From positions 1-16,577 of the forward strand of contig JAYEMF010000061.1 of the NCBI GenBank assembly GCA_034717975.1: a stretch of 16,577 nucleotides of DNA. The letters are read 5' to 3'. The translations under genes were made by a program, and so were the position numbers. Below are positions 2 to 16,558 of the stretch, one piece after another. The DNA is from Campylobacterota bacterium (GTDB lineage: Bacteria > Campylobacterota > Campylobacteria > Campylobacterales > Sulfurimonadaceae). The stretch's first letter is position 1. Every line of letters begins with the position of its first letter. The notes below the pieces were generated by a model that was given only the letters and a program-made list of their open reading frames with translations, made no database searches and had not been told where the DNA came from.

Positions 2-436
2 TATAACCTCTTTCATGACACCCTCATCTCCGAGATCACCGATTTTGAGAAGATCGGCTGTTTTGCCAATGCCGAATTTGCCGATGAGAGTGAAGTACTT
101 GAGATCGATTTCAAAGGTTTCAAATCACTCTATGAGCACTCCCCGCAACTTATGCTGGGCCTGCTTAAAGAGTTCGCCAGAAAAGCCAAGATGATGCAGT
201 GTATCATCAACCGGGAGATCGTTTTTGACGGGACTGCCAAAGTCGCCTTTATGCTCATCAATGATCTGGACAGCTTCAACCGCCTCAAGAAGCAGGAGGT
301 TGCCTATATGCTCAATATCCAGCCTGAAACCCTCTCGCGCATCCTGAAAAAACTGACCCGTAACGGCATCATCACGACCGAAGAGAACAAAATCATGATT
401 AGTGATGAGAGCGCACTTAAAGCCATATTTGATTAA
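2..436 (+). CDS. Crp/Fnr-family transcriptional regulator (NssR/Dnr-like), 5'-truncated by the window edge
   Basis: Frame is open from position 2 (YNLFHDTLISEITDFEKIGCFANAEFADESEVLEIDF... cNMP-barrel end) through the C-helix to the HTH KQEVAYMLNIQPETLSRILKKL with the Fnr-type E-x-x-S-R recognition helix. The ORF-track ATG at 152 is internal. Confidence 0.93.
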   Translation, partial: YNLFHDTLISEITDFEKIGCFANAEFADESEVLEIDFKGFKSLYEHSPQLMLGLLKEFARKAKMMQCIINREIVFDGTAKVAFMLINDLDSFNRLKKQEVAYMLNIQPETLSRILKKLTRNGIITTEENKIMISDESALKAIFD

Positions 437-450
437 CAAAGGAGTCTCAC

Positions 451-1779
451 GTGAATAAAATTACCACCAAAGTGAAACTGATCGGCGGGATCCTCTCGTT
501 GATGATCGCTGCCATTGTCGTCATCACCGTCATTATCAACCAAAACTCCTCACATGACTCTATCGTTATCAATGTGGCGGGAAAACAGCGTATGCTGACA
601 CAAAAGATCACAAAAGAGGTGATGTGGCTGCAAAACCGCGGCTCGGTTGACTTCACCAACCTTGATGCGGCCATCAGTGAATTTGACAACTCCCTCAATG
701 ACCTGATGGAGGGTAATGACGCACGCGGTATCTATGCCCCGCCGAAGGCATGTATCAAAGCCAGGCTGGGACAGGTCCGGGCATTATGGTTACCATTCCA
801 CGATCATCTGGACAGCTTCAAACTCCTGCTCTCACAGACCAAAACACTTAAAGCGACAATGTCTGAATCGACCGAAGCTATCTTGAATATCTCCGATCGT
901 GTAGTCAAGCAGATGGTCAAAGAAGGTATGGGAGGCCGTTACATCGATGATGCAGGCAGACAGCGCATGCTTACCCAAAAACTTGCCTTCCACTCCGCAC
1001 AGTACCTCATAACCGGAAGCGCACAGAGCGTCACCGCATTTTTTAATGCCTATGCTCTTTATGAATCGACACTGAAACATTTTCTAAGTGATGCCAGAGT
1101 GCAGAAACAGGTAGAACTTTTTAAAATACTTGAGAAAAACGAGCAGATCTGGTTTGACTATGCCAACTACATCATTGACCTGATGGATAAACAAAAAGAG
1201 CTCAATGAAACATTGGCATATCTCACCGAAATCAATATTGTTTTGCTGAACACTATGGATGAAACGGTAGAATCCTACAGTACCTACTCCGAAGATCAGC
1301 GCCAGTTTCTGCAGTATTTTCAATATATCGCCAGCTTCTTTGCCGTTATATTTATGATCTTTGCTGCGCGTCTTACAAAAAATATTGAACAGAATTTCGA
1401 GCATTTTCTACAGCACTCTGAAGCGATGGCAAGCTCGTTCAGCGATGAGGGCACCTCCGATATCGCTAAAAACAGAGAGAACGATGAACTGGCACTGGCA
1501 TCAATGCATATGAGCCAGTTTATGCAGCAGATGAATACCGTCATCGAGCATGCACAGCAGGCCATTCATGAATCAGAACAGGCAGCGCAGGAGCTGGCGG
1601 CCATATCGGACTCCATGGATGATGAGCTTGCGCTTGATGAAGATTCAAAAGAGCGCATCGACAACAGTGAAGATATCGTTATCCAGACCCTCGACGAGCT
1701 GAGCAATACCTCACAACTTCTTACCAAACTGCAGCAAAATCTTAGCAGTGTGATGACAAAAACACAAAATCATGACTAA
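451..1779 (+). CDS. Membrane-anchored putative nitrate/nitrite sensor: TM - tandem NarX-like/PilJ N-terminal sensor domains - TM - degenerate HAMP - short coiled-coil tail, no catalytic output domain
   Basis: GTG start with SD AAGGAG at 439-444. TM1 about aa 10-30, TM2 about aa 286-307. Two P-box-like motifs: INVAGKQRMLTQK (aa 40-52) and IDDAGRQRMLTQK (aa 165-177). HAMP-like NDELALASMHMSQFMQQM. No H-box/HATPase and no MCP LLALNAAIEAARAG hairpin. Confidence 0.8.
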   Translation: MNKITTKVKLIGGILSLMIAAIVVITVIINQNSSHDSIVINVAGKQRMLTQKITKEVMWLQNRGSVDFTNLDAAISEFDNSLNDLMEGNDARGIYAPPKACIKARLGQVRALWLPFHDHLDSFKLLLSQTKTLKATMSESTEAILNISDRVVKQMVKEGMGGRYIDDAGRQRMLTQKLAFHSAQYLITGSAQSVTAFFNAYALYESTLKHFLSDARVQKQVELFKILEKNEQIWFDYANYIIDLMDKQKELNETLAYLTEINIVLLNTMDETVESYSTYSEDQRQFLQYFQYIASFFAVIFMIFAARLTKNIEQNFEHFLQHSEAMASSFSDEGTSDIAKNRENDELALASMHMSQFMQQMNTVIEHAQQAIHESEQAAQELAAISDSMDDELALDEDSKERIDNSEDIVIQTLDELSNTSQLLTKLQQNLSSVMTKTQNHD

Positions 1780-1852
1780 CTTATCTTTGTGACTTTGCAA
1801 ACTGGTAAAAAAGTATCACCTTAAATAGCTCTTACAAAATTTCTATCAAAAA

Positions 1853-1866
1853 TTGACCTATGTCAA
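1853..1866. promoter_or_regulatory. Fnr/Dnr/Nss-type binding site TTGAC-CTAT-GTCAA upstream of napA
   Basis: Perfect TTGAC-N4-GTCAA palindrome, 21 nt upstream of TACAAT (centre about -40.5 if +1 is near 1900). 13/14 identical to the box at 9547-9560. Confidence 0.88.
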
Positions 1867-1887
1867 AAAAAAGCTTTCCTATTGCGT

Positions 1888-1893
1888 TACAAT
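1888..1893 (+). promoter_or_regulatory. sigma70 -10 element of the nap operon (gtTACAAT)
   Basis: Matches the gnTAnAAT pattern, lies at class-II spacing from the Fnr-type box, and gives a leader of about 70 nt to the napA ATG. Confidence 0.7.
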
Positions 1894-1968
1894 GTGTCGT
1901 TACCTATAGAATCAGAGTGCTGATCATCTTTAATGATAAGGTGTTCTGTTCAATTTAAGGAGGGACAA

Positions 1969-4806
1969 ATGAGCAAAATGATGGATAGAAGAAGTTTTCT
2001 TAAGAGTGCTGCGGCTGCTTCAGCTGCAAGTGCGATTGGAATGACTATTCCGACGGATGCACAGGCTGCATCGGATGCGGCACAAAGCGACTGGCGCTGG
2101 GATAAGGCGGCCTGTCGTTTCTGTGGTACCGGTTGTGGGATCATGATGGCGACCAAAGAGGGTCGTGTTGTTGCGGTCAAGGGGGACCCGGCAGCTCCAG
2201 TAAATCGTGGTCTGAACTGTATCAAGGGTTACTTCAACGCGAAGATCATGTATGGTGCTGACCGTTTGACGAAACCTTTGCTGCGTGTTAATTCAAAAGG
2301 CGAATTTGATAAAAAAGGTAAATTTGCCGAAGTAAGCTGGGAACGTGCTTTTGACGAGATGGAACATCACGCCAAAAAAGCGCTTAAAGCAAGCGGACCG
2401 GAAGGTGTCGCAGTATTCGCTTCCGGACAGTACACTGTTATGGAAGGTGTTGCTGCACAAAAAATGATGAAAGCCGGATTCCGTTCAAATGCGATCGATC
2501 CGAATGCACGTCACTGTATGGCATCAGCGGTTGTTGGTTTCTACCAGACTTTCGGTATCGATGAGCCGTCTGGCTGTTATGATGATATCGAGCTGACAGA
2601 TACGATTGTATCTTGGGGTTCAAACATGGCAGAGATGCACCCGATCCTCTGGTCTCGTGTAACTGACCGTAAACTGACTGATCCTGATCGCGTTAAAGTG
2701 GTCAATATGTCAACTTACCGCCACAGAACATCAGATTTGGCCGATATCGAGATCATCTTCTCGCCAAATACCGACCTTGCAATCTGGAACTACATTGCAC
2801 GTGAGATCGTTTACAATCACCCTGAAGCAATTGACTGGGATTTCGTCAAGAAACACATCGTGTTTGCAGCGTCTCCGGTAAATATGGGTTACGGTATGCG
2901 TCGTGCAGGTGAGAAGTCACTGAAAGACGGTAAGTATACTGCTCTTGAAATGGAAACTATCTCTAAAGAGATGAGTAAAGTCGTTTCTGAAAAAGAGGCA
3001 CCTGCTCTTGAGCCTTACGGTTACAAAGCCGGTGACAACATGGAGATGAAACCTGCCGGTCTTAAACACTGGGAGATCTCATTCGAAGAGTATAAAAAAT
3101 TCCTTGCTCCATATACACTTGATTATGTGGCAAACATTGCCAAAGGTGATCCAAACGAGAGCGTTGAAAGCTATGCGGCCAAACTGCAGGCACTTGCAGA
3201 CCTATATATCGAAAAAGGGCGTAAAGTCGTCTCTTTCTGGACAATGGGTATGAATCAGCATACACGTGGTACCTGGGTAAATACACTCTCTTACAACGTT
3301 CACTTCCTGCTTAACAAACAAGCTAAGCCGGGTGATGGTGCATTCTCACTGACTGGTCAGCCTTCAGCTTGTGGTACAGCTCGTGAAGTTGGTACATTCT
3401 GTCACAGACTTCCAGCCGATATGATGGTTAAAAGTCCTAAACACAGAAAAATCTGTGAAACTGCATGGAAAATCCCGGACGGTACACTAAACCCTGTCGG
3501 AAACCAGCACATCATGAAGATCCACCGCGATATTGAAGATGGTGTTGTTAAATTTGCATGGGTCAACGTATGTAACCCATACCAAGATACTGCATCAGCA
3601 AGTCACTGGATCAAAGCGGCACGTGAGATGGATAACTTCATCGTATGTTCAGACGGTTACCCCGGTATCTCTGCAAAAGTTTCTGACCTGATCCTTCCGA
3701 CAGCGATGATCTATGAAAAATGGGGTGCTTACGGTAATGCCGAGCGTCGTACACAGCACTGGAGACAACAGGTCCTTCCGGTAGGTGATTCGATGTCTGA
3801 CACATGGCAGTGGGTTGAGTTCTCAAAACGCTTTACTGTTAAAGATCTTTGGGGTGCACAACCACTAAGAGGTAAAAACAAAGACGGTTCACCAAAAGGA
3901 CTTCCGGATGTAATTGCCAAAGCGAAAGCGATGGGCTACAGTGAAAATGACACAATGTTTGACATCCTGTTTAACAATGAGTACTACCGCTCGTTCAAAA
4001 TCGACATGAATGATCCAGTTCAAAAAGGTTATGACAACTCTGAGTGTAACGGCGATAGCCGTAACGTTGTCGGATCTGACGGTAAAGTGTGGAAAGGGTA
4101 TGGTTTCTTTATCCATAAAGCACTGTTTGAAGAGTATGCTAACTTTGGACGCGGTCATGCACATGACCTGGCACCATTTGATGTCTACCATAAAGTACGT
4201 GGTCTTAAATGGCCTGTTGTCGATGGTAAAGAGACTCAATGGCGTTTCAATGTCAAGTACGATCCATATGCAGCCAAAGCCAATGCCAAAGCGGGTACAG
4301 ATAACTCTCACGCCTTCTACGGAACACTGGCTAAAGCTCTGACTCAGGGTGACCTGATGGGTATTAAAGATAAAAAGAAAAAATCACTGGCAAATAAAGC
4401 GAAGATCTTTGCACGTCCGTATATGGATCCTCCAGAAATGCCAGATAACACATGGGATCTATGGCTTTGTACCGGCCGTGTACTTGAACACTGGCACTCT
4501 GGAACAATGACAATGCGTGTACCTGAACTTTACCGTGCGGTACCGGAAGCACTCTGTTATATGCACCCTGCCGATGCGAAAAAACGTGGCGTTAAACGTG
4601 GTGAACTGGTTAATGTTGAATCACGTCGCGGAAGCGTTAAAGCACGTGTCGAGACTCGTGGACGTAACAGACCACCTGAAGGTCTATGTTTCGTACCTTG
4701 GTTCGATGAAAAAGTATTTATCAATAAAGTCTGTCTTGATGCGACATGTCCGCAATCTAAACAGACCGACTTTAAAAAATGTGCCGTAAAAGTCACGAAG
4801 GCGTAA
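1969..4806 (+). CDS. napA: Periplasmic nitrate reductase catalytic subunit NapA (Mo-bisMGD, [4Fe-4S]), epsilon-type large form
   Basis: Tat signal [15 protein letters not shown]...C cluster motif, NARHCMASA Mo ligand, [26 protein letters not shown] and DFKKCAVK. Start moved from 1933 to ATG 1969, which follows SD AAGGAGG at 1957-1963. Confidence 0.98.
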
Positions 4807-4833
4807 TCCTTCAGTGCCATAGCGGTCAGTGTA

Positions 4834-4858
4834 GGTAGATGGGCTTAGCTCATTTACC
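4834..4858 (+). other. Intra-operon RNA stem-loop between napA and napG
   Basis: GGTAGATGGGC-TTA-GCTCATTTACC forms an 11-bp stem with two G-U pairs and has no classical U-tract. Confidence 0.6.
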
Positions 4859-4880
4859 GTTATAAATAAAAAGTGTAACA

Positions 4881-5681
4881 GTGAAAAAAGAACCTCTAAG
4901 CGATCGTCGCAAATTTATCCTCACCATGGCACGGGGCGTTGGCCTTAGTGCGATGGGTGCTCTTGTATGGAGTGCTTATGTCGATGAAGTTAAAGCGGCG
5001 CCGCTTATTTTACGTCCTCCAGGTGCACTTGCCGAAGAGGATTTTTTAAAAACATGTATCAAATGTGGCTTGTGTGTGGAGGCGTGTCCTTACGATACGC
5101 TCCTGCTCGCCAAGCCGGGAGATAACAATCCTATCGGTACGCCATTTTTCATTCCAAAAGATATCCCGTGCTATATGTGCGACGATATTCCTTGTGTTCC
5201 GGTCTGTCCGACCGGCGCACTGGACACGGCATCGGTACAGTCAGAAATTGACGGCGAGATGACGTGGGATATCATGAAGATGGATATGGGCGTAGCCATT
5301 GTCGACGTCAAATCATGCATCGCGTTCTGGGGAATCCAGTGCGATGCGTGTTATCGCGCCTGTCCACTAATGGATGAAGCGATTTATCTTGATTATGACA
5401 AAAATGAACGGACCGGGAAGCACGCTTTTTTGAAGCCTGTTGTCAATCCTGACATCTGTACAGGCTGCGGCCTGTGCGAACGAGCCTGTGTGACGGAAAA
5501 ACCGGCAATTTTAGTACTGCCGAATGAAGTTGCACTCGGTAAAGCGGGTGACCACTATATCAAAGGCTGGGACAAAGCTGATGAAGAACGTCTCGAAGGT
5601 GCTAAAGCTGAGACGACAACGACTGAGCTAAGTAAAGAGAGCGCAATGGATTCGCTTAACGATATGGGAGATCTGTACTGA
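4881..5681 (+). CDS. napG: Ferredoxin-type protein NapG (quinol dehydrogenase periplasmic subunit)
   Basis: Tat motif DRRKFIL, LRPPGA, CIKCGLCVEACP, CYMCDDIPCVPVCP, CDACYRACP and CTGCGLCERAC. GTG start. Confidence 0.96.
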   Translation: MKKEPLSDRRKFILTMARGVGLSAMGALVWSAYVDEVKAAPLILRPPGALAEEDFLKTCIKCGLCVEACPYDTLLLAKPGDNNPIGTPFFIPKDIPCYMCDDIPCVPVCPTGALDTASVQSEIDGEMTWDIMKMDMGVAIVDVKSCIAFWGIQCDACYRACPLMDEAIYLDYDKNERTGKHAFLKPVVNPDICTGCGLCERACVTEKPAILVLPNEVALGKAGDHYIKGWDKADEERLEGAKAETTTTELSKESAMDSLNDMGDLY

Positions 5682-6499
5682 TGAAAAAGATACGTTATTT
5701 ACTGATGCGTCGATTTGTTCAGATCGGATTGATGGTACTTTATTTTGGTGCCAATGCCTACGGATGGAAGATCCTGCAGGGGAACCTAAGCGGTTCACTG
5801 CTGTTTGAGACTGTTCCGCTGGCAGACCCGTATGCGTTGATTCAGATGCTGTTTGCCGGAGCTGTTCTGGCAACCGACATCATTATCGGTGGAGTGATCA
5901 TCGCTGTTATCTATATGATTGTCGGTGGTCGTGCTTTTTGTAGCTGGGTCTGCCCAATCAATATGGTTACAGACCTGGCTAACTGGCTACGCCGTAAGAT
6001 CGGTGTCTCTCAGGTTCAAAAACGCGTCTATATGAGTCGCAACATCCGTTTCTGGATGCTCGGCTTAAGCCTTATCCTCTCAGTAGTGATGGGTGTGGCG
6101 GCGTTTGAACTGATCAGCCCGATCTCCATGGTGCACCGTGGTCTTGTCTTTGGCATGGGTCTTGGTATCGGAGCGATTGTTGTTATCTTCTTGTTTGATC
6201 TGTTTGTACATGAAAACGGATGGTGCGGGCATATCTGTCCACTTGGCGGATTTTACTCCATTTTGGGGAAAATCTCGCTAATCAGGGTTCGCCACGATGC
6301 GGACGCCTGTACTGCCTGTATGAAATGTAAAGAGGTTTGTCCGGAAAAAGAGGTGCTGCATATGGTAGCAAAGAGCAGTGAGAGTGTGTTAATGGGGCAG
6401 TGTACCAACTGCGCACGCTGTATTGAAGTGTGTGACGATGATGCACTGAACTTCTCACTGCGAAGTCTTGTTAAAAAAGAAAAGAAGGGGAACGCATGA
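5681..6499 (+). CDS. napH: Quinol dehydrogenase membrane subunit NapH
   Basis: RRFVQ, several TMs, GRAFCSWVCP, GWCGHICPLG and two C-terminal CxxCxxCxxxC motifs. TGATG overlap with napG. Confidence 0.96.
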   Translation: MKKIRYLLMRRFVQIGLMVLYFGANAYGWKILQGNLSGSLLFETVPLADPYALIQMLFAGAVLATDIIIGGVIIAVIYMIVGGRAFCSWVCPINMVTDLANWLRRKIGVSQVQKRVYMSRNIRFWMLGLSLILSVVMGVAAFELISPISMVHRGLVFGMGLGIGAIVVIFLFDLFVHENGWCGHICPLGGFYSILGKISLIRVRHDADACTACMKCKEVCPEKEVLHMVAKSSESVLMGQCTNCARCIEVCDDDALNFSLRSLVKKEKKGNA

Positions 6500-7122
6500 A
6501 AATGAAAATTGTTCTAGGCGCTATTACAGCTGCGATGCTGATGGTCGGTTGTACTGATTCGGCTGCGCCAGCTGCGCAAGCTGAAGTAAAACCAACAATT
6601 ACAGAAGAGTCTTTGGGTCTGCGTAAAACAGATCTTTATTCAGAAAATACAACCGTAGCTGCGAAGACAACGTACGGAACGGCTGCTGCAGGCGGCTCGG
6701 CAAAATTTGAGCGTGCATTTGACAATGCACCACCGATGATCCCGCACGATACGGAAGGGATGTTGCCAATCACTATGAATGACAACCAGTGTACCGGATG
6801 TCATATGCCGGAAGTAGCACCATCTATGGGGGCAACGCCGATTCCGGCATCGCACTTTGCAAGTTTCAGACCGGTTACGGAGATCGGTGCCGATGATAGA
6901 ATGGTAAAAGATGGAGCATCTGTAGACAATACAAGTGACAAACTGACATCACTGCATACAATGGATACGATGAATCACGCGCGTTACAACTGTTCACAGT
7001 GTCACGCACCACAGTCAACCGGTGATCTGCTGGTTGAAAATAACTTCCGCCCTGACTTTCAGAGCGAAAGCATGAAAAGCGGTTCTAGCCTGCTTGATAC
7101 CCTGAATACAGGTGTAAAATAG
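6496..7122 (+). CDS. napB: Diheme cytochrome c subunit NapB
   Basis: NAPPMIPH, CTGCH and CSQCH heme motifs, SHF. N-terminal signal ends in MVGC. ATGA overlap with napH. Confidence 0.96.
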   Translation: MKMKIVLGAITAAMLMVGCTDSAAPAAQAEVKPTITEESLGLRKTDLYSENTTVAAKTTYGTAAAGGSAKFERAFDNAPPMIPHDTEGMLPITMNDNQCTGCHMPEVAPSMGATPIPASHFASFRPVTEIGADDRMVKDGASVDNTSDKLTSLHTMDTMNHARYNCSQCHAPQSTGDLLVENNFRPDFQSESMKSGSSLLDTLNTGVK

Positions 7123-7602
7123 TTGGCAGACCTAAGCCGACGCGGTTTTTTTGGTGCCATTGGCGCCAAAGCCGTCAGTAAGGAGATCAAAATACGACCT
7201 CCTTACGCCAAAGAGAGTACTCTTTTTGGCACAGAGTGTCCCCAGTGTACTGGAGTTTGCGGCACTGTGTGCGAAGAAGAGATCATCAAGTTTGGTACAG
7301 ACAAGATTCCGTATCTCGATTTTTCAAAGAGTGGTTGTACCTACTGTGAAGAGTGTCTGAGTGCATGCGAACCGGGAGTCCTCAGTGATCCCGAGATAAA
7401 GGTACAGGCTTCCATCCGTATTAATCCAGCCAAATGTATGAGCTGGGAAGAGGTGATGTGTTTCTCCTGTAAAGAGCCGTGCCTGGATAATGCGATCATC
7501 TTCAGCGGGCTCTTCAAGCCAGAGATCAATAATGAGCTATGCACCTCATGTGGTTTCTGCCTTGGCCGTTGTCCAAGCAATGCCATAGAGATAGTGGCTT
7601 AA
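7123..7602 (+). CDS. napF: Ferredoxin-type protein NapF
   Basis: TTG start directly after the napB TAG. SRRGFF, IRPPY and four Cys clusters. Confidence 0.93.
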   Translation: MADLSRRGFFGAIGAKAVSKEIKIRPPYAKESTLFGTECPQCTGVCGTVCEEEIIKFGTDKIPYLDFSKSGCTYCEECLSACEPGVLSDPEIKVQASIRINPAKCMSWEEVMCFSCKEPCLDNAIIFSGLFKPEINNELCTSCGFCLGRCPSNAIEIVA

Positions 7603-7624
7603 AACAGAAAAGAGAGTAAGTAAT

Positions 7625-8587
7625 ATGTTAAAACCTATCTTTGCGCTTCTCATGCTATTGGCCATCACCACTTGTGCCAAAGAGATCAAGCCGGTTTATG
7701 AACTGAAGACAAGCGGGTTTGTTACCGATATAATCATTGATGAGGGCAAACTGTATGCCTCAACCTTTAGCGGTGCCGTCGATATTTTTGATATTAAAAG
7801 CAAAAAAAAGAGTGCTGATATCAAACTGCCCAATATTACCGACTTTATAGGAGATGTCGTTCCTCCAAAAGTCTACTCTGTCGATCGTCTGGCCAATAAG
7901 ACAATGATGGTCTCCGAAGGAAAATCGGGCTACCGCAACGTCTTTTTACATGACGGTAAAACGCTTACCCTGCTAAGTGAGTCAAAGTTTTTCATTAAAA
8001 AAGGACTTTTTGTCGATGAAGATCACATACTTCTGGGTCTTCTTAGCTCTGAACTCATACTTTTCAAGATCAGCACCAAAGAGGTGATCTACCGGCATCC
8101 TATTCTGGAACGTCGCAGCGGCGGTTCAGCTTTTAGCGATATGGTCCTGAGTGAAGATAGAAAAACGGTCGCGACTGCAGACGAGAGCGGTGAAATCCAT
8201 CTCTTCAATGTGGAGGATTTCAAACATCTAAAACTCTATGTTGGCCAAAACCTCGATAACATCTACAAGATCGACTATAAAAAAGGGATGATTATTACTG
8301 CCGGGCAGGATAGACGCTGTGCCATCTATAAACCTGATGGCAGAGCCTATTATGTCAATGGTGAATTTCTGATCTATGCTGCCGCGCTAAGCCCGTCGAG
8401 CAAGACAGGTGTCTTTGCCTCGACTGTGGAAAACGATCTTCAGCTTTTCAACACGGTTACAAAAAGCAAGACCCATCTTCTTAAAGGGCATGGTGCTACA
8501 CTTACAGACTTTGCCTTTTTGAGTGAGACCCAGTTCTTCTCATCGGCAGAAGAGAAGCGTATCCTATTTTGGGATATCACAAAGTAA
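7625..8587 (+). CDS. napL: NapL, WD40-like beta-propeller accessory protein
   Basis: Signal peptide, WD40-like repeats (LKGHGATLTDFAF...RILFWD), and position between napF and napD as in the epsilon napAGHBFLD operon. Confidence 0.88.
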   Translation: MLKPIFALLMLLAITTCAKEIKPVYELKTSGFVTDIIIDEGKLYASTFSGAVDIFDIKSKKKSADIKLPNITDFIGDVVPPKVYSVDRLANKTMMVSEGKSGYRNVFLHDGKTLTLLSESKFFIKKGLFVDEDHILLGLLSSELILFKISTKEVIYRHPILERRSGGSAFSDMVLSEDRKTVATADESGEIHLFNVEDFKHLKLYVGQNLDNIYKIDYKKGMIITAGQDRRCAIYKPDGRAYYVNGEFLIYAAALSPSSKTGVFASTVENDLQLFNTVTKSKTHLLKGHGATLTDFAFLSETQFFSSAEEKRILFWDITK

Positions 8588-8614
8588 ATTTTAAATTAAT
8601 CAGGAGAGTAACAT

Positions 8615-8965
8615 ATGAATGTATCAAGTATTGTCGTACAAACTACACCAAAGTTTATTGACGAAGTTGTGGAAGCACTGAAAAATCTGGATATATGTGA
8701 CTACCACTTTCACGATGAGATGGGACGCATAATTGTTACCATCGAGGGTTCAGGTGTGGAAGAGGAGATCAAGAAACTGACAGTCATCCAGGAGATGCCT
8801 CATATTGTTGCAGCCGATATGCATTTTGCCTATACGGAAGATGAACTTGATGCCGAACGTGACAAGCTTGAAAAAGAGGGGACTGCTCTTCCTGAATGGC
8901 TCAACAAGGAAGATGTCAATGTTAGAGACATCCAATATCACGGTGATCTCAAAAAGAAATTCTAA
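8615..8965 (+). CDS. napD: NapD Tat-proofreading chaperone
   Basis: MNVSSIVV...GRIIVTIEG signature, SD AGGAG, and operon position. Confidence 0.95.
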   Translation: MNVSSIVVQTTPKFIDEVVEALKNLDICDYHFHDEMGRIIVTIEGSGVEEEIKKLTVIQEMPHIVAADMHFAYTEDELDAERDKLEKEGTALPEWLNKEDVNVRDIQYHGDLKKKF

Positions 8966-8975
8966 GGAGCTATCC

Positions 8976-9503
8976 ATGGAAACCTCATTTGCTATATTTC
9001 AGGAGACAGAAGTACCTGAAAATGAGCTCATCATCTCACGTACTGATCTCTCTGGTATCATCACCTATGTCAATGATACCTTTGCAGAGATTTCAGGCTA
9101 CGATAACGATGAACTGATCGGCCAATCACACAACATTTTACGTCATCCCGATATGCCGCACAGTGTCTTCAAAACATTGTGGGATACCATCGAAGCTGGA
9201 AACAGCTGGGAAGGCTACGTCAAAAACCGACGCAAAGACAACGGCTACTACTGGGTCTATGCAAACATCAGCGGTGTCTATAAAGACGGGAAGCTGGTCG
9301 AGTATAAATCCCTGCGTTCATTTGTACCAAAAGCAAAACGTGACGAGGTCCAAAAAGTCTATGATGAACTGCGCCAAAATGAAGGAGACACTGTACGTAC
9401 AGTCACCTACCTTCCTGCCGATCTTTACACATCATTGAAACTCGAAGCCAGCGACAGCGGTCAGTCAATCGACGATCTTGTAATCGCTAAACTAAGTAAA
9501 TAA
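8976..9503 (+). CDS. Aer/CetB-type PAS (probable FAD-binding) protein with a C-terminal ribbon-helix-helix-like segment
   Basis: ATG at 8976 follows SD AAGGAG overlapping the napD stop; the ORF-track start at 8805 overlaps napD and is rejected. IISRTDLSGIITYVNDTFAEISGY...HNILRHPDMP...LWDTI...WEGYVKNRRKDNGYYWV is the Aer PAS signature. Tail: VRTVTYLPADLYTSLKLEASDSGQSIDDLVIAKL. Confidence 0.9.
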   Translation: METSFAIFQETEVPENELIISRTDLSGIITYVNDTFAEISGYDNDELIGQSHNILRHPDMPHSVFKTLWDTIEAGNSWEGYVKNRRKDNGYYWVYANISGVYKDGKLVEYKSLRSFVPKAKRDEVQKVYDELRQNEGDTVRTVTYLPADLYTSLKLEASDSGQSIDDLVIAKLSK

Positions 9504-9520
9504 GGCCCTTTAAGGGTCTT
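9502..9520 (+). terminator. Possible terminator/stem-loop ending the nap-PAS transcript
   Basis: AAGGCCC-TTTAA-GGGTCTT hairpin at the stop codon. The U-tract is weak and displaced. Confidence 0.45.
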
Positions 9521-9546
9521 GTCACTCCTCATTTTTATCTTTCACA

Positions 9547-9560
9547 TTGACCTAAGTCAA
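9547..9560. promoter_or_regulatory. Fnr/Dnr/Nss-type binding site TTGAC-CTAA-GTCAA upstream of the cytochrome c553 gene
   Basis: Perfect TTGAC-N4-GTCAA, 22 nt upstream of TATAAT (centre about -41.5 if +1 is near 9595). Confidence 0.9.
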
Positions 9561-9582
9561 AGGTATTATCCTCATATTAAAC

Positions 9583-9588
9583 TATAAT
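9583..9588 (+). promoter_or_regulatory. sigma70 -10 element (TATAAT) of the cytochrome c553 gene
   Basis: Consensus hexamer at class-II spacing from the Fnr-type box. SD AAGGA at 9605-9609. Confidence 0.75.
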
Positions 9589-9615
9589 CAAACCAACATT
9601 ACAAAAGGAAAATAG

Positions 9616-9909
9616 ATGAAGAAAGTACTTCTCGCAGGTTTAATGGTAGTTGGTATGTCATCGGTAGCATTTGCAGATGGTGCAGCTGCGTATAAAAAAT
9701 GTGCAGGCTGTCACGGTGCAAACGGTGAAAAAGTAGCTCTTGGTAAAAGTAAAGTGATCAAAGATATGTCAAAAGCTGATATTGTTGCTGCTATGAAAGG
9801 CTACAAAGACGGTACTTATGGCGGTCCAATGAAAGGGTTGATGAAAGGTCAAGTTGCTTCAATGAGTGATGCCGATATTCAAGCTATCGCAGATATGATC
9901 GGAAAATAA
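9616..9909 (+). CDS. Periplasmic monoheme cytochrome c553 (class I)
   Basis: Sec signal ending AFA, CAGCH, and distal Met region GGPMKGLMKGQ, typical of epsilon c553. Confidence 0.93.
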   Translation: MKKVLLAGLMVVGMSSVAFADGAAAYKKCAGCHGANGEKVALGKSKVIKDMSKADIVAAMKGYKDGTYGGPMKGLMKGQVASMSDADIQAIADMIGK

Positions 9910-14193: not shown

Positions 14194-14199
14194 ATTATA
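14194..14199 (-). promoter_or_regulatory. Probable alaS -10 element (ggTATAAT) overlapping the stop codon of the upstream EAL gene
   Basis: Consensus TATAAT about 50 nt upstream of the alaS ATG. Its TAA is the EAL gene stop at 14195-14197. Confidence 0.6.
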
Positions 14200-16558
14200 C
14201 CGAAGTCGTTGTTACAATACGCTCAAACTCGCTCATTGGCATCGGTTTATAGGCATAATAACCCTGATAGATGTCACATTTGATTTGCTTTAGATGATTC
14301 AGCGCTTCAAGGTTTTCCACTCCTTCAGCCAAAATTTTCAGATTAAACTTCTGTCCGATCGCCACAACCGATTCAACGATCATCGCATCACCCTGATTCT
14401 GATCCATATTGAGTACAAAGGCCTGGTCAATCTTGATCACATCTACCGGGAGCTGTTTCAGGTAAGCAAATGAGGAGTAGCCCGTTCCAAAATCATCAAT
14501 GGAGAAAGTGATTCCAAAATGCTTGAGTTCCTCTATCTTTCTTATCGCATCATGAATATTACGCATGATCTCACTCTCGGTCAGCTCCAGCTCGATCCAC
14601 TCCGGCTGAACCTGATGCTTGTTGACCAGGAGCATAAAGCGTTCAACAAAATAGGGCTGCAAAAAGTGTGTTGCACTGACATTGATGGCGATATGGCGTA
14701 GTGGAAAACCATCTTGCCCCTCACTCATTGCTTTAATCTCCCGCAGAGCCTGATCAAAGATCCACTCTTCGAGTTTGATAATGACCCCGCTCTCTTCAGC
14801 CACACCTATAAATTTATCTGGCGATATCGAGCCTTTTTCCGGATGAAACCATCGGATGAGCGCCTCAGCACCAATGATCTTATTGCTCTGAACGTCCAGT
14901 TGCGGCTGATAATAGATCTGGAACTCACCGTTTTTAAGCGCTTTGTGAATGTCATTCTCAATCGTGAGCTGCTCTTGGGCATGGACCCCCATCACACTAT
15001 GATAGAGTTTAATGGTATTGCGACCGCTTTTCTTGGCTTCATACATGGCAGTTTCCGAACGTTTCAGGATATCAAAAGCCGCGGTATCTGTATTATTGAA
15101 AAGCACAATCCCTATCGAAAGGCTCAAGTGGTAATCTTCACCGGCCGTCTTAAGCGGCCGGACGAAACTGCCTTTAATACTCAGGGCATGCTCCGAGGCT
15201 TCATGTTTGGCATGATCTTCGTCCATACCAAGCGAAGGTAACAGAACCACAAATTTGTCACCTCCAATGCGCGCGATGGTTTCGTTCTCTCCGATCACTT
15301 CTTCAATTTTGTACGCCACCTGCTTAAGTACCGTATCGCCTACATTGTGACCAAAAGTATCATTGACCTTTTTGAAGTTGTCGATATCAATAAAAAGCAG
15401 AGCAGCATAGTGTACCTGCACTGTATCTTTGGCGATCAGCGTGTTTAGCTTATCCATCAGCAGTGTACGGTTCGGGATCTCGGTCAGCATGTCATAATAG
15501 GCGTTGCGTACCATCTCCTCTTTGGCCGTCACCTCATCGGTAATATCGTTTATTATTGCTATCCCGCCGGTCACCTCTCCGTCGCTGTCTAGCATCGGCA
15601 CAGTCGAAAGATCGACATAAATAACATCTTCACCATAGAGTGTCTCAAAAGGACCGCGATAATTACCGGTCTGATTACGAAAAACATTTTCATGTACGTC
15701 GATAATATCACGATTTTTCAGCACATAAAGGTCCTGCCCGATCAGATCCTTTGTATACTCAACCCTGTTCATATGTTTAAACTGGGTATTGACATCCTGA
15801 AGAATCAGACTTGTATTGTAGTAATAGATGCCGACAGGTGCGCGTTCAAAAAGTGAGAAGAAACGCTCTTTGAGCTTGTCGTGGGAGTGTTTGATCGTAA
15901 TAAAATGCTGATGGTTGTTAAGCGAGTTGTTGATCACTCTGCCATAGTAGTTTGCAATCAGCACCATAATAAGCATCAGGGCGATAACAACGTAGGCAAT
16001 ATTGTTATAGATCCCACCATCCAGGAAAAAGAGACGCAAAATAAGCGGTAAAAAAGTCACCAGCACAAAACCAAGCAGCAAGTCACGTTTCGATGCCAGA
16101 ACACCCATCGACGTAAAACTGATCGCGAATAAAAAGAGCAGTACGACCATCTGATTGATCAGGTTCTCTGCCGGGAACATCAATACCGCGCTGCTTCCCC
16201 ACACAATTCCGCTGATCATGACATTCGTATAGTAGCGGTGAAGCCAGAGTCTGGCATCTTTGAGTTTATGGTATTCGCTTTCATGCCGAAACACGTAGTA
16301 GTGGTAAAAACGGTAAAGGAACATCACGAAACTGAGCAGCAGCCAGATACCGATGGAGTAGAGATCGACTGATTCCAGCTGCAGTGCACTCAGCAAAAGC
16401 GCCCCAAACATCTGGCCAATCAGCGTGATCGGCAGAGAGAGGTAAAAGAAGGTTAATTTATCATAGGCGAGGCGCTCTTCAAAAGAGACCGCTGTATTAT
16501 CGATGGCCTGATTCGAATCGTTATTAAAATTTTTATCTTGTTTCATCATCTCTGTCAT
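14195..16558 (-). CDS. Membrane-bound PAS-GGDEF-EAL c-di-GMP protein, probably a phosphodiesterase (GGDEF motif is GGDKF)
   Basis: About 5-6 N-terminal TMs, PAS (LFERAPVGIY...INDIT), DIDNFKKVND...ARIGGDKF, and intact EAL motifs EALIRW, INVS, ELTE, DDFGTGYSS, KIDQ, EGVE and QG. Confidence 0.93.
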   Translation of the reverse strand: MTEMMKQDKNFNNDSNQAIDNTAVSFEERLAYDKLTFFYLSLPITLIGQMFGALLLSALQLESVDLYSIGIWLLLSFVMFLYRFYHYYVFRHESEYHKLKDARLWLHRYYTNVMISGIVWGSSAVLMFPAENLINQMVVLLFLFAISFTSMGVLASKRDLLLGFVLVTFLPLILRLFFLDGGIYNNIAYVVIALMLIMVLIANYYGRVINNSLNNHQHFITIKHSHDKLKERFFSLFERAPVGIYYYNTSLILQDVNTQFKHMNRVEYTKDLIGQDLYVLKNRDIIDVHENVFRNQTGNYRGPFETLYGEDVIYVDLSTVPMLDSDGEVTGGIAIINDITDEVTAKEEMVRNAYYDMLTEIPNRTLLMDKLNTLIAKDTVQVHYAALLFIDIDNFKKVNDTFGHNVGDTVLKQVAYKIEEVIGENETIARIGGDKFVVLLPSLGMDEDHAKHEASEHALSIKGSFVRPLKTAGEDYHLSLSIGIVLFNNTDTAAFDILKRSETAMYEAKKSGRNTIKLYHSVMGVHAQEQLTIENDIHKALKNGEFQIYYQPQLDVQSNKIIGAEALIRWFHPEKGSISPDKFIGVAEESGVIIKLEEWIFDQALREIKAMSEGQDGFPLRHIAINVSATHFLQPYFVERFMLLVNKHQVQPEWIELELTESEIMRNIHDAIRKIEELKHFGITFSIDDFGTGYSSFAYLKQLPVDVIKIDQAFVLNMDQNQGDAMIVESVVAIGQKFNLKILAEGVENLEALNHLKQIKCDIYQGYYAYKPMPMSEFERIVTTTSV

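Follow-up and report, generated by a model that had tools for sequence, protein, structure and literature searches.

A Crp/Fnr regulator and a kinase-free PilJ-domain membrane sensor as a candidate nitrate-responsive pair at the nap operon of a Sulfurimonas-like Campylobacterota genome

The window analysed here, a stretch of 16,577 nucleotides from a Sulfurimonas-like Campylobacterota genome (2.52 Mb, 99.9% complete), contains a unit for the control of nitrate respiration. All elements named by the first-pass annotation, i.e. a Crp/Fnr gene, a sensor gene, the boxes, the nap operon, a PAS gene and a c553 gene, are found in it, with all genes on the forward strand. The first gene (2..436) is truncated by the contig start. 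Its 144 codons encode the C-terminal part of a Crp/Fnr regulator of the Dnr/Nss type (HTH_Crp_2 at 9e-12), and the first ~76 codons are located at the end of contig C127. It is followed by a directly read gap of 14 nt (437..450), which contains AAGGAG before the GTG start of the sensor gene at 451 and indicates tight coupling of both genes.

The nap operon, napAGHBFLD, spans 1969..8965. In detail, it consists of napA (1969-4806), napG (4881-5681), napH (5681-6499), napB (6496-7122), napF (7123-7602), napL (7625-8587) and napD (8615-8965), and NCBIfam and Pfam confirmed the names given to all seven genes, napA with 1425 bits against a cut-off of 904. The start of napA is most likely the ATG at 1969, preceded by the ribosome binding site AAGGAGG at 1957-1963, and not the opening of the reading frame at 1933. 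This gene order without napC is of the Campylobacterota type and recurs in genomes G254 and G216. Further downstream, a small class I (c553-type) cytochrome c is encoded at 9616..9909 (Cytochrom_C at 1e-7), whose translation contains a signal peptide and a CAGCH motif.

Two nearly identical Fnr-type boxes had been proposed ahead of nap and c553, and both proved to be exact copies of TTGAC-N4-GTCAA, namely Box 1, TTGACCTATGTCAA, at 1853-1866 upstream of napA and Box 2, TTGACCTAAGTCAA, at 9547-9560 upstream of the cytochrome gene (neither is assigned to a strand). Only 0.04 exact boxes would be expected in the window and none of 200 shuffles gave two or more; the significance is lost when one mismatch is tolerated (2 versus 0.77 expected; 33 of 200 shuffles). 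The whole 2.52-Mb genome has only four exact sites, and a third intergenic one lies between cNosZ and nosB/nosD. All 19 spacers between sensor gene and napA contain a box with at most two mismatches (11 exact, six with one mismatch, two with two), and the position of Box 2 is also boxed in locus L031 and in G254. Candidate -10 elements are TACAAT at 1888-1893, which would put the centre of Box 1 near -41.5, and TATAAT at 9583-9588 for Box 2. The boxes are presumably read by the sensor-paired Crp rather than by a paralogue; the genome encodes two further Crp paralogues, which could read the same boxes.

The window covers only the C-terminal 144 residues of the regulator, and the evidence for its effector domain comes from orthologues: the fragment shows 76% identity to L005, a full-length orthologue, over residues 75-218 of the latter, and 22 of 22 orthologues possess both cNMP_binding and HTH_Crp_2. 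The DNA-recognition helix, IQPETLSRILKKLTRN (317..364, corresponding to L005 residues 180-195), has invariant Q, P, T, L, S, R and R residues in alignment A2, and its IQPET.SR motif (IQPETLSR) is the same as in DNR of Pseudomonas aeruginosa (3dkw), the nearest solved relative. A cNMP-type effector domain together with a Crp HTH bearing the E--SR helix, present in all 22 orthologues, places these proteins in the Dnr/Nss branch of the Crp/Fnr superfamily. With DNR and the Nss regulators (NssR of C. jejuni; NssA/B/C of W. succinogenes) they share the Crp/Fnr fold, the Dnr-type helix, boxes of the TTGA-N6-TCAA type and, as predicted here, control of nap and nos genes, and no partner protein of those regulators is described in the literature we examined. 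An oxygen-sensing [4Fe-4S] Fnr proper was rejected, as the 22-row alignment shows no N-terminal Cys cluster and only C94 and C141 are conserved.

The sensor gene (451..1779) encodes a protein of 442 residues, in which two transmembrane helices (TM1 and TM2) flank a periplasmic PilJ domain of two modules and TM2 is followed by an acidic tail of helices. Pfam detects PilJ only (PF13675, 5.7e-24, in two stretches), and NCBIfam gives no match. Two N-boxes, INVAGKQRMLTQ (residues 40-51, 568..603) and IDDAGRQRMLTQ (residues 165-176, 943..978), exactly match the McpN pattern [IVL]-[ND]-x-A-G-x-Q-R-M-L-[ST]-Q as given in excerpts of PMC6381276; the second is missing from a short form of the family (~330 aa). 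Module 1 aligns to the nitrate-binding domain of McpN (6gcv, E 2.2e-15), whose N-box Arg contacts nitrate on the dimer axis according to the same excerpts (PMC6381276). Judging from these sequence features, the periplasmic domain most likely binds nitrate.

The cytoplasmic tail (residues 309-442, 1375..1776) comprises a HAMP-like linker and, behind it, a helical hairpin of acidic character (AF2 helices 343-392 and 397-439). It contains 27 D/E and 6 K/R, giving a net charge of -21 (median of -11 over 44 homologues), and includes a helix with an invariant SEDIVIQ motif (residues 404-426, 1660..1728, corresponding to L005 residues 414-436), of which E407, D408 and I411 are invariant in alignment A1. 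Six tails tested against Pfam reached no cut-off, be it for a kinase, an MCP or another output domain, nor did HAMP match in any of the six; feature matches in the Atlas to HAMP clusters (0.88-0.90) are a lead only. The description of a sensor 14 nt behind the Crp/Fnr gene, with nitrate-type boxes and no output domain, is thus borne out by two exact N-boxes and the Pfam result.

With NarX/NarQ of the E. coli NarX/NarQ-NarL/NarP systems the protein shares a periplasmic four-helix PilJ-type domain with an Arg-containing nitrate box, two TM helices and the connection to nap control, and its linker may likewise be of the HAMP type. However, it has no DHp histidine, no ATPase domain (HATPase_c) and no response regulator, and its output is predicted to be the stoichiometric binding of a Crp/Fnr protein. 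A kinase of the NarX/NarQ class was rejected, since neither the protein nor the six tails contain HisKA_3 or HATPase_c and the His of the tail stretch IHESE is not conserved in alignment A1. The genome, 99.9% complete as it is, likewise yielded no HisKA_3 domain, hence no NarX-class kinase domain, and no PilJ-domain gene besides that of the sensor, supporting the view that this system is independent of NarXL. The phylum is one without the NarXL paradigm.

The closest sequence relative of module 1 is McpN (PA2788 of P. aeruginosa), which has an identical N-box, and the tail is distantly akin to the HAMP domain and adjoining helices of MCPs. Nine of ten distant matches tested with the tail profile are MCPs, aligned over HAMP (covered in eight of the ten) and the following helices, suggesting that the cytoplasmic part apparently descends from a truncated chemoreceptor. 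The sensor could then be a decayed McpN-like nitrate chemoreceptor that has lost its signalling tip and serves taxis through another transducer, or senses another anion. One homologue is indeed labelled as a methyl-accepting chemotaxis protein by JGI, and the PilJ domains of the chemoreceptor PilJ do not bind nitrate (excerpts of PMC6381276). That receptor, however, lacks an N-box according to the same source, whereas both N-boxes of the sensor are exact, MCPsignal scores far below its cut-off (E 0.06-0.16), and the conserved neighbours are crp and nap with no che genes adjoining, so that we regard this explanation as very improbable. Unlike McpN, the sensor has no MCP signalling domain and ends ~130 residues after TM2, its long form has a second PilJ module, and it is encoded together with a transcription factor instead of che genes.

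The pairing with Crp is conserved without exception. Of the genome-contig loci with a match reaching the tail and with upstream DNA, all 23 have crp immediately before the sensor gene in the same orientation; the same arrangement is found in 29 of 29 loci with upstream DNA from 300 sampled Campylobacterota genomes. The two sets span at least eight family codes and combined provide 44 distinct Crp-sensor pairs. In 18 of 21 related loci, the distance between the two genes ranges from -8 to +11 nt. The neighbourhood survey thus speaks for the pairing proposed at the outset, and nap is adjacent in many loci (within the retrieved DNA in 15 of 24); in the complete genome G254 the whole gene order crp-sensor-napAGHBFLD-PAS-c553 is preserved, along with three exact boxes. 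The search of the 300 genomes gave the sensor in 65, and 64 of these also have napA. As napA is present in 185 of the 235 genomes without sensor, and as 119 of the 124 genomes of family f3 have napA whereas one of the 124 has the sensor, the module is not the sole route of the phylum. RNA contigs covered only napA of relatives, and neither crp nor the sensor gene.

Modelling of the sensor tail with the Crp/Fnr protein as a 2:2 complex supported binding, with an ipSAE of 0.69 versus 0.01 for the best of three controls, which included neither another HTH protein nor the paralogous Crp; docking of this kind might occur between an acidic helix and basic HTHs in general. Of 157 solved complexes 116 attain the score mark, as do 2 of 215 mismatched pairs, counts that are only a rough guide here because the 2:2 stoichiometry and the custom alignments of 21-22 rows differ from the calibration. 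Runs agreed in at least 93% of contacts, with a partner pLDDT of at least 54. In L005 numbering, Crp residues 150-152 and 180-195, the latter being the recognition helix, contact tail residues 382-389 and 414-436, the latter containing SEDIVIQ. The SEDIVIQ helix is therefore predicted to bind the recognition helices of Crp in the manner of a DNA mimic.

There might nevertheless be no direct coupling between the two proteins, the sensor being merely co-expressed and signalling elsewhere or idle, while Crp detects a signal of its own such as NO, redox state or a small ligand. DNR is a heme/NO sensor. The Crp partners retain the cNMP-type pocket and two near-invariant cysteines in alignment A2, of which C94, when aligned with CRP, comes to lie next to the residues that bind the cAMP phosphate, suggesting that they may sense some signal themselves; in addition, covariation between sensor and Crp was not significant over the 44 pairs (4 interface pairs in the top 2% versus 1.4 expected), and regulators of the NssR type answer nitrosative stress as described in parts of PMC8139620. 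The unbroken adjacency of overlapping or near-touching genes across the family codes and the complex score argue against this explanation, as does the conservation of a tail with no known output domain: a search of 1.84 billion representatives with its profile gave no more than 171 proteins, and matches down to E ~1e-9 belong, as compared by length, to the two length classes of the family or to shorter pieces. We therefore consider the absence of coupling rather unlikely. Direct coupling and sensing by Crp itself are compatible, and Crp could integrate both inputs.

As the complex model puts the SEDIVIQ helix on the recognition helix of Crp, we interpret the sensor as a membrane anti-activator, gated by nitrate, of the Crp that would activate nap-PAS, c553 and nosB, a reading we hold to be, on balance, somewhat probable. 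The two-gene operon would encode a Dnr/Nss-type activator and a dimeric two-TM sensor which, in the absence of nitrate, would hold the regulator at the membrane with its HTH occluded. The signal of nitrate binding would travel along TM2 and the HAMP-like linker and loosen this grip, and the freed Crp would occupy the TTGAC-N4-GTCAA boxes centred near -41.5, activating napAGHBFLD-PAS, the c553 gene and the nosB operon. The first-pass annotation had already proposed that a kinase-free sensor signals to its co-transcribed Crp by binding or sequestration; adjacency and complex model support the binding, while we infer nitrate as the ligand, the sign of control, the release of Crp and the reader of the boxes.

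The same complex might also work with reversed or positive logic, the nitrate-bound sensor capturing Crp and thereby switching off a high-affinity Nap under ample nitrate, or the sensor acting as a membrane co-activator or scaffold. The interface model is silent on the signal state, nitrate lowers the transcripts of the related mcpN, with taxis occurring only under nitrate starvation (excerpts of PMC6381276), and vent Nap enzymes are described in part of PMC4584964 as high-affinity adaptations to low nitrate. On the other hand, the predicted contact covers the DNA-recognition helix, so that Crp in the bound state should have no access to the boxes, a point against co-activation, and Nap of W. 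succinogenes is induced by nitrate through an Nss regulator according to passages of PMC6682613 and PMC8139620. We judge such reversed or positive logic unlikely. A point against the anti-activator reading itself is that Nap of Sulfurospirillum multivorans is seemingly not regulated by nitrate, as stated in a review (PMC6682613).

The last gene of the nap cluster (8976-9503) encodes a protein of 175 aa with PAS_3 at 1.1e-17. Its AF2 model (pLDDT 90.8) is best matched by the PAS domain of E. coli Aer (8dik; TM 0.94, E 3.3e-15, 43-46% identity), with which it has the stretch HNxxRHPDMP in common, and also matches NifL (2gj3); by its fold the domain is an Aer-type FAD-PAS with putative FAD binding. 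The C-terminal tail (nt 9384-9500) may be RHH-like, as suggested by its sequence pattern, an AF2 model with an extended stretch and two helices, and Pfam RHH matches below the cut-off (RHH_5 at E 0.0016, the best among four of 12 tails of the family with such matches, all sub-threshold); the two helices are missing in 13 of 32 family members. Of the earlier claim that a PAS-RHH protein adds a redox input, the Aer-type PAS domain and a strong link to nap hold, the RHH part is weakened by these sub-threshold matches and missing helices, and the input itself is plausible. Like CetB, the protein is a stand-alone PAS protein, but in contrast to CetA/CetB and Aer its gene sits inside nap clusters (23 of 29 loci) and not beside a transducer, and the long form adds the RHH-like tail.

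These features would also accommodate a three-input membrane hub, in which nitrate (through PilJ), redox state (through the FAD-PAS docked on the HAMP-like linker, as the PAS domain of Aer docks on the HAMP of the same protein and CetB on CetA) and NO or thiols (through the pocket cysteines of Crp) lead to one event, namely that a DNA-mimicking tip of four helices lets go of the recognition helices of a Dnr/Nss regulator. This extension strikes us as distinctly unlikely; if true, it would explain in general terms how oxygen, nitrate and N2O respiration are ordered in free-living Campylobacterota, which would manage this in the absence of Fnr, NarXL and NsrR.

Membrane sequestration of regulators is known from Mlc and the glucose transporter, sigma-E and the anti-sigma factor RseA, and MalT and MalK. 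The proposed anti-activator shares with these systems a membrane protein that holds a transcription factor inactive and releases it upon a signal with no phosphoryl transfer. It would differ in its holder, a periplasmic ligand sensor dedicated to this task and derived from a chemoreceptor, and in its prey, a Crp/Fnr dimer predicted to be gripped by its recognition helices.

No published description of the Crp-sensor pair was found in the literature searched. By what means nitrate is perceived by the Nss-type Crp/Fnr regulators of Campylobacterota is, according to reviews (PMC8139620), not known, and the pair represents a concrete and testable candidate receptor for it, with ligand-gated sequestration of a Crp/Fnr factor via its recognition helix as the mechanism offered. 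If true, a phosphorylation-free transmembrane route would join the known modes of bacterial nitrate sensing. This would be relevant for understanding how denitrification and N2O turnover are controlled in sulfidic and vent habitats as well as for the design of compact nitrate biosensors, and the sensor would be an example of a chemoreceptor converted into a transcription-factor holder.

The window comprises an entire contig (C61; 16,577 bases). Its genome measures 2.52 Mb at 99.9% completeness, and the nearest related loci are found in MAGs titled Helicobacteraceae, Sulfurimonas and Campylobacterales. On the forward strand, a Crp-type regulator gene that is cut by the contig start, leaving its final 144 codons (2–436), is followed by the gene of the sensor, a protein of 442 aa with PilJ as its sole Pfam family (451–1779), by napA, napG, napH, napB, napF, napL and napD (1933 or 1969–8965), by the gene of a PAS protein of 175 aa (8976–9503) and by that of a cytochrome c of 97 aa with a signal peptide and a CAGCH motif (9616–9909). 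The genes on the reverse strand are maf, a small membrane protein gene, alaS and a PAS-GGDEF-EAL gene (14195–16558). Palindromic boxes, TTGAC-N4-GTCAA, precede napA (1853–1866) and the cytochrome c553 gene (9547–9560). The elements listed in the first-pass annotation were confirmed, including the succession of Crp/Fnr gene and sensor gene after 14 nt; the gap contains AAGGAG and the sensor starts with GTG.

The first ~76 codons of crp form the end of another contig of the same genome, C127 (locus L097, 1486–1722). This N-terminal part contains no in-frame ATG, GTG or TTG, and an ATG at 1496 of the locus is one frame off from crp and lies directly before a run of five A; the missing start could be due to an assembly error at the contig end or to an unusual start codon. 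A contig from a DNA run reaches ~1.6 kb past the first base of the window, which is consistent with the join of C127 to the contig of the window (C61). The two crp pieces were treated apart and modelling was done with full-length orthologues.

Relatives of the sensor numbered 134 in a word-indexed search, with 120 of them listed. The family occurs as a long form of ~420–470 aa with two PilJ modules and as a short form of ~330 aa with a single module. The tail, i.e. the cytoplasmic part, is common to both forms, its invariant residues being F, E, F, E-D-x-x-I, L and L. A first set of loci (L005–L040, out of the best 80 genome_contigs loci) included 24 in which the match extends to the tail or the gene is truncated by the contig end; in 23 of these crp lies directly upstream of the sensor gene on the same strand, and the 24th (L028) starts inside the sensor gene. 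The gap between both genes is –8 to +11 nt in 18/21 loci, the other three values (–41 to –56) being an effect of the longest-ORF rule. For a second set, a sensor profile was run over 300 sampled Campylobacterota genomes, of which it matched 65, and the 30 best loci were inspected: crp is directly upstream in 29, and the 30th (L134) starts within the gene. The two sets partly overlap (L128 is from the genome of L014) and together provide 44 distinct crp-sensor pairs. The neighbourhood survey proposed in the first-pass annotation thus finds Crp upstream in 23/23 and 29/29 loci having upstream DNA. In one MAG (L018, 5736–6008) the crp preceding the sensor consists of an ORF of only 90 codons, which matches residues 73–124 and is possibly broken or misassembled. 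In six loci of the short form (L014, L016, L017, L021, L023 and L038) a divergent gene with a GGDEF domain lies on the opposite strand ~1–2 kb upstream of crp and resembles the PAS-GGDEF-EAL protein of the window.

By family code, the sensor was found in 14/23 genomes of f1, 14/15 of f7, 10/11 of f11, 17/90 of f2 and 1/124 of f3. Of the 300 genomes 249 contain napA, among them 64 of the 65 sensor-bearing ones (exception G153), so that the sensor implies nap; the converse fails, as most nap genomes, above all those of f3, have no sensor. Nap genes lie inside the fetched DNA in 15/24 loci of the first set, and a complete genome (G254) keeps the full order crp, sensor, napAGHBFLD, PAS and c553, with exact boxes before crp, napA and c553. 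In another complete genome (G216, family f2) the distance between sensor and napA is ~930 nt, two exact boxes stand 16 nt apart before napA (locus L159, 9665–9694) and no PAS gene follows napD. In the excerpts returned by full-text literature searches, including those of PMC6682613, PMC8139620, PMC8199190, PMC12285233, PMC4584964 and PMC11539149, a pairing of a PilJ-type sensor with Crp/Fnr is not described.

Hydrophobic segments span residues 10–29 and 289–306 of the sensor, and as the N-terminus is lysine-rich, the 260 residues between them should be periplasmic. In sequence alignments this region matches the PilJ domain, likewise bimodular, of P. aeruginosa PilJ (7zjr, E 1.5e-16), and its module 1 matches the McpN domain with bound nitrate (6gcv, E 2.2e-15); the fold matches of an AF2 model (pLDDT 81) are the same as those obtained by sequence. 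Both "P-boxes", which had been called nitrate-type, match the McpN N-box pattern exactly (PMC6381276). According to an excerpt of the McpN report, a single nitrate is held on the dimer axis by the arginine of the N-box, and McpN does not bind nitrite (PMC6381276).

The matches of the whole sensor in fold and sequence searches (PilJ, McpS, TorS and McpN) are confined to the periplasmic part. Six tails were compared with Pfam, and all of their matches stay below the cut-offs and are coiled-coil noise; the sensor has no Pfam output domain, in agreement with the initial description. A HisKA_3 domain is absent from the genome of the window, as found by a search which was positive in 7/14 reference genomes including E. 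coli, and this genome contains no other PilJ-domain gene besides the sensor. The absence of HisKA_3 from the genome and of Pfam domains from the 6 tails supports the proposal of a NarXL-independent system without phosphorelay.

A profile built from the tail only and run against 1.84 billion representatives matched 171 proteins at E ≤0.001 and 97 at ≤1e-10. Judged by length, the matches listed to E ~1e-9 belong to the two length classes of the sensor family or are shorter pieces. Among the weaker matches with other architectures 9/10 are chemoreceptors, 8 of these 9 with a Pfam HAMP domain, and where coordinates were compared the match starts within HAMP and continues through helices that precede the MCP signalling domain (in P0351, residues 212–338 vs 197–249 for HAMP). 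The Atlas feature search pointed to HAMP clusters at 0.88–0.90, which is a lead only, and the Atlas structure rows named no family for the tail. In our reading, the sensor derives from a nitrate chemoreceptor by loss of the signalling tip, with a HAMP-like linker and a hairpin of ~95 residues being kept. The tail is strongly acidic, with 27 D/E vs 6 K/R in the sensor of the window and a median net charge of –11 over 44 homologues.

Both cNMP_binding and HTH_Crp_2 are present in all 22 full-length Crp orthologues. Among solved structures the nearest to them is P. aeruginosa DNR, with which they have the IQPET.SR recognition helix in common. The alignment of the orthologues contains no Fnr-type cysteine cluster; C94 and C141 are near-invariant, and in alignment C94 falls next to the residues with which CRP binds the cAMP phosphate. 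Two more Crp paralogues exist in the genome of the window, neither with a sensor downstream, and both were rejected as further sensor pairs: that on contig C104 stands alone, and that on contig C43 (locus L085, 3–1249), also cut by the contig start, is followed after 5 nt by a gene for a patatin-like phospholipase.

The presence of two near-identical Fnr-type boxes was upheld: the window contains two exact copies vs 0.04 expected, and none of 200 shuffles gives two. When one mismatch is allowed, the count within the window is not above chance. In the whole genome 4 exact boxes occur, namely the two of the window, a third on contig C77 (locus L003, 1501–1514) between the gene of a cytochrome-c-fused NosZ (cNosZ) and nosB/nosD, and a fourth inside a mechanosensitive-channel gene; the position of the third suggests that N2O reduction is probably part of the same regulon. 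All 19 spacers between sensor and napA contain a box with ≤2 mismatches (11 exact, 6 with one mismatch and 2 with two). The centres of the two boxes are 28.5 and 29.5 nt upstream of the hexamers TACAAT (1888–1893) and TATAAT (9583–9588), picked by eye as putative –10 elements, a spacing that would put transcription starts near 1900 and 9595 and centre the boxes around –41.5, as in class II activation by CRP/FNR. A generic promoter scan of the window did not detect these two activator-type promoters. Metatranscriptome contigs (X5–X7) cover only napA, with neither crp nor the sensor gene represented, and their likeness of 90–95% points to transcripts of relatives. In G254 an exact box 83 nt upstream of crp (locus L158, 3083–3096 of the reverse complement) suggests a putative autoregulation; in the genome of the window a half-site only, plus a sigma-70-like TTGACT-18-TATTAT, is found upstream of crp. 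For Nitrosophilus labii, a published study describes exact TTGA-N6-TCAA sites 48–49 bases upstream of the napA, norE and nosB transcription starts, as well as a Crp/Fnr gene upstream of nap that is 44.8% identical to NssA (PMC11539149).

The PAS protein belongs to a large and highly conserved family (2,736 matches, with 60–73% identity among the matches listed). Its AF2 model (pLDDT 90.8) best matches the PAS domain of E. coli Aer (8dik, 43–46% identity, TM 0.94), followed by the FAD-PAS of NifL. The gene adjoins napD or napL in 23/29 of the best non-self loci (exceptions L099, L101, L102, L105, L111 and L118) and also in L005, L018 and L025. Over those 32 loci, 19 genes encode a long form with a strand-helix-helix tail and 13 a short form terminating right behind a conserved R-x-V-x-Y strand. 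In seven loci (L120, L122–L127) a short PAS gene (~140 aa) lies between napL and napD instead of after napD; judging from such loci, a free-standing PAS protein of the Aer type appears to belong regularly, though without a name of its own, to many nap clusters of Campylobacterota. A "PAS domain-containing protein" is named in the Figure 5 legend on the Nitrosophilus denitrification cluster, and the excerpts concerned assign it no role (PMC11539149). The sensor is present in 17/23 genomes with a nap-linked PAS gene, a co-occurrence that proves little since these relatives are not independent. Of the earlier description as a PAS-RHH protein, the part on a conserved nap gene is upheld, and the RHH nature of the tail is uncertain: RHH profiles match 4/12 tails, all below cut-offs, and the tail is missing in 13/32 loci. 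A redox input by the PAS protein is plausible, whereas DNA binding by its tail, as judged from sequence, is uncertain.

For the complex of sensor tail and Crp, a 2:2 prediction was run with two copies each of the Crp (alignment A2) and of the tail (residues 309–452, alignment A3) from locus L005. The score was 0.69 (runs 0.69, 0.71 and 0.55) vs 0.01 for the best of 3 controls; the score mark is attained by 116/157 solved complexes and by 2/215 mismatched pairs, and is rough for this job, which used its own alignments and is not a single-chain pair. At least 93% of the contacts agree between runs, and the partner pLDDT is at least 54. The predicted interface comprises Crp residues 67–68, 150–152 and 180–195, i.e. 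the recognition helix, and tail residues 382–389 and 414–436 with the invariant SEDIVIQ helix; the interface positions are identical in the Crp fragment of the window, and SEDIVIQ is identical in its sensor. We are not aware of a comparable complex among solved structures, and a model score owed to a memorised structure seems unlikely. Mutual information over 44 Crp-tail pairs placed 4 interface pairs in the top 2% vs 1.4 expected, an underpowered comparison. The prediction, with its contact on the recognition helix, supports the proposed binding of Crp by the sensor tail at the level of a model.

Taken together, the synteny, the loss of all enzymatic output, the conserved acidic tail and the controlled interface on the recognition helix support, as far as computation can go, the interpretation that the kinase-free sensor may act directly on the presumably co-transcribed Crp. 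In the simplest reading of the model, the sensor dimer would hold its acidic four-helix tip between the two HTH units like DNA and, in that way, would keep Crp off its boxes, and nitrate would change the grip of the sensor on Crp.
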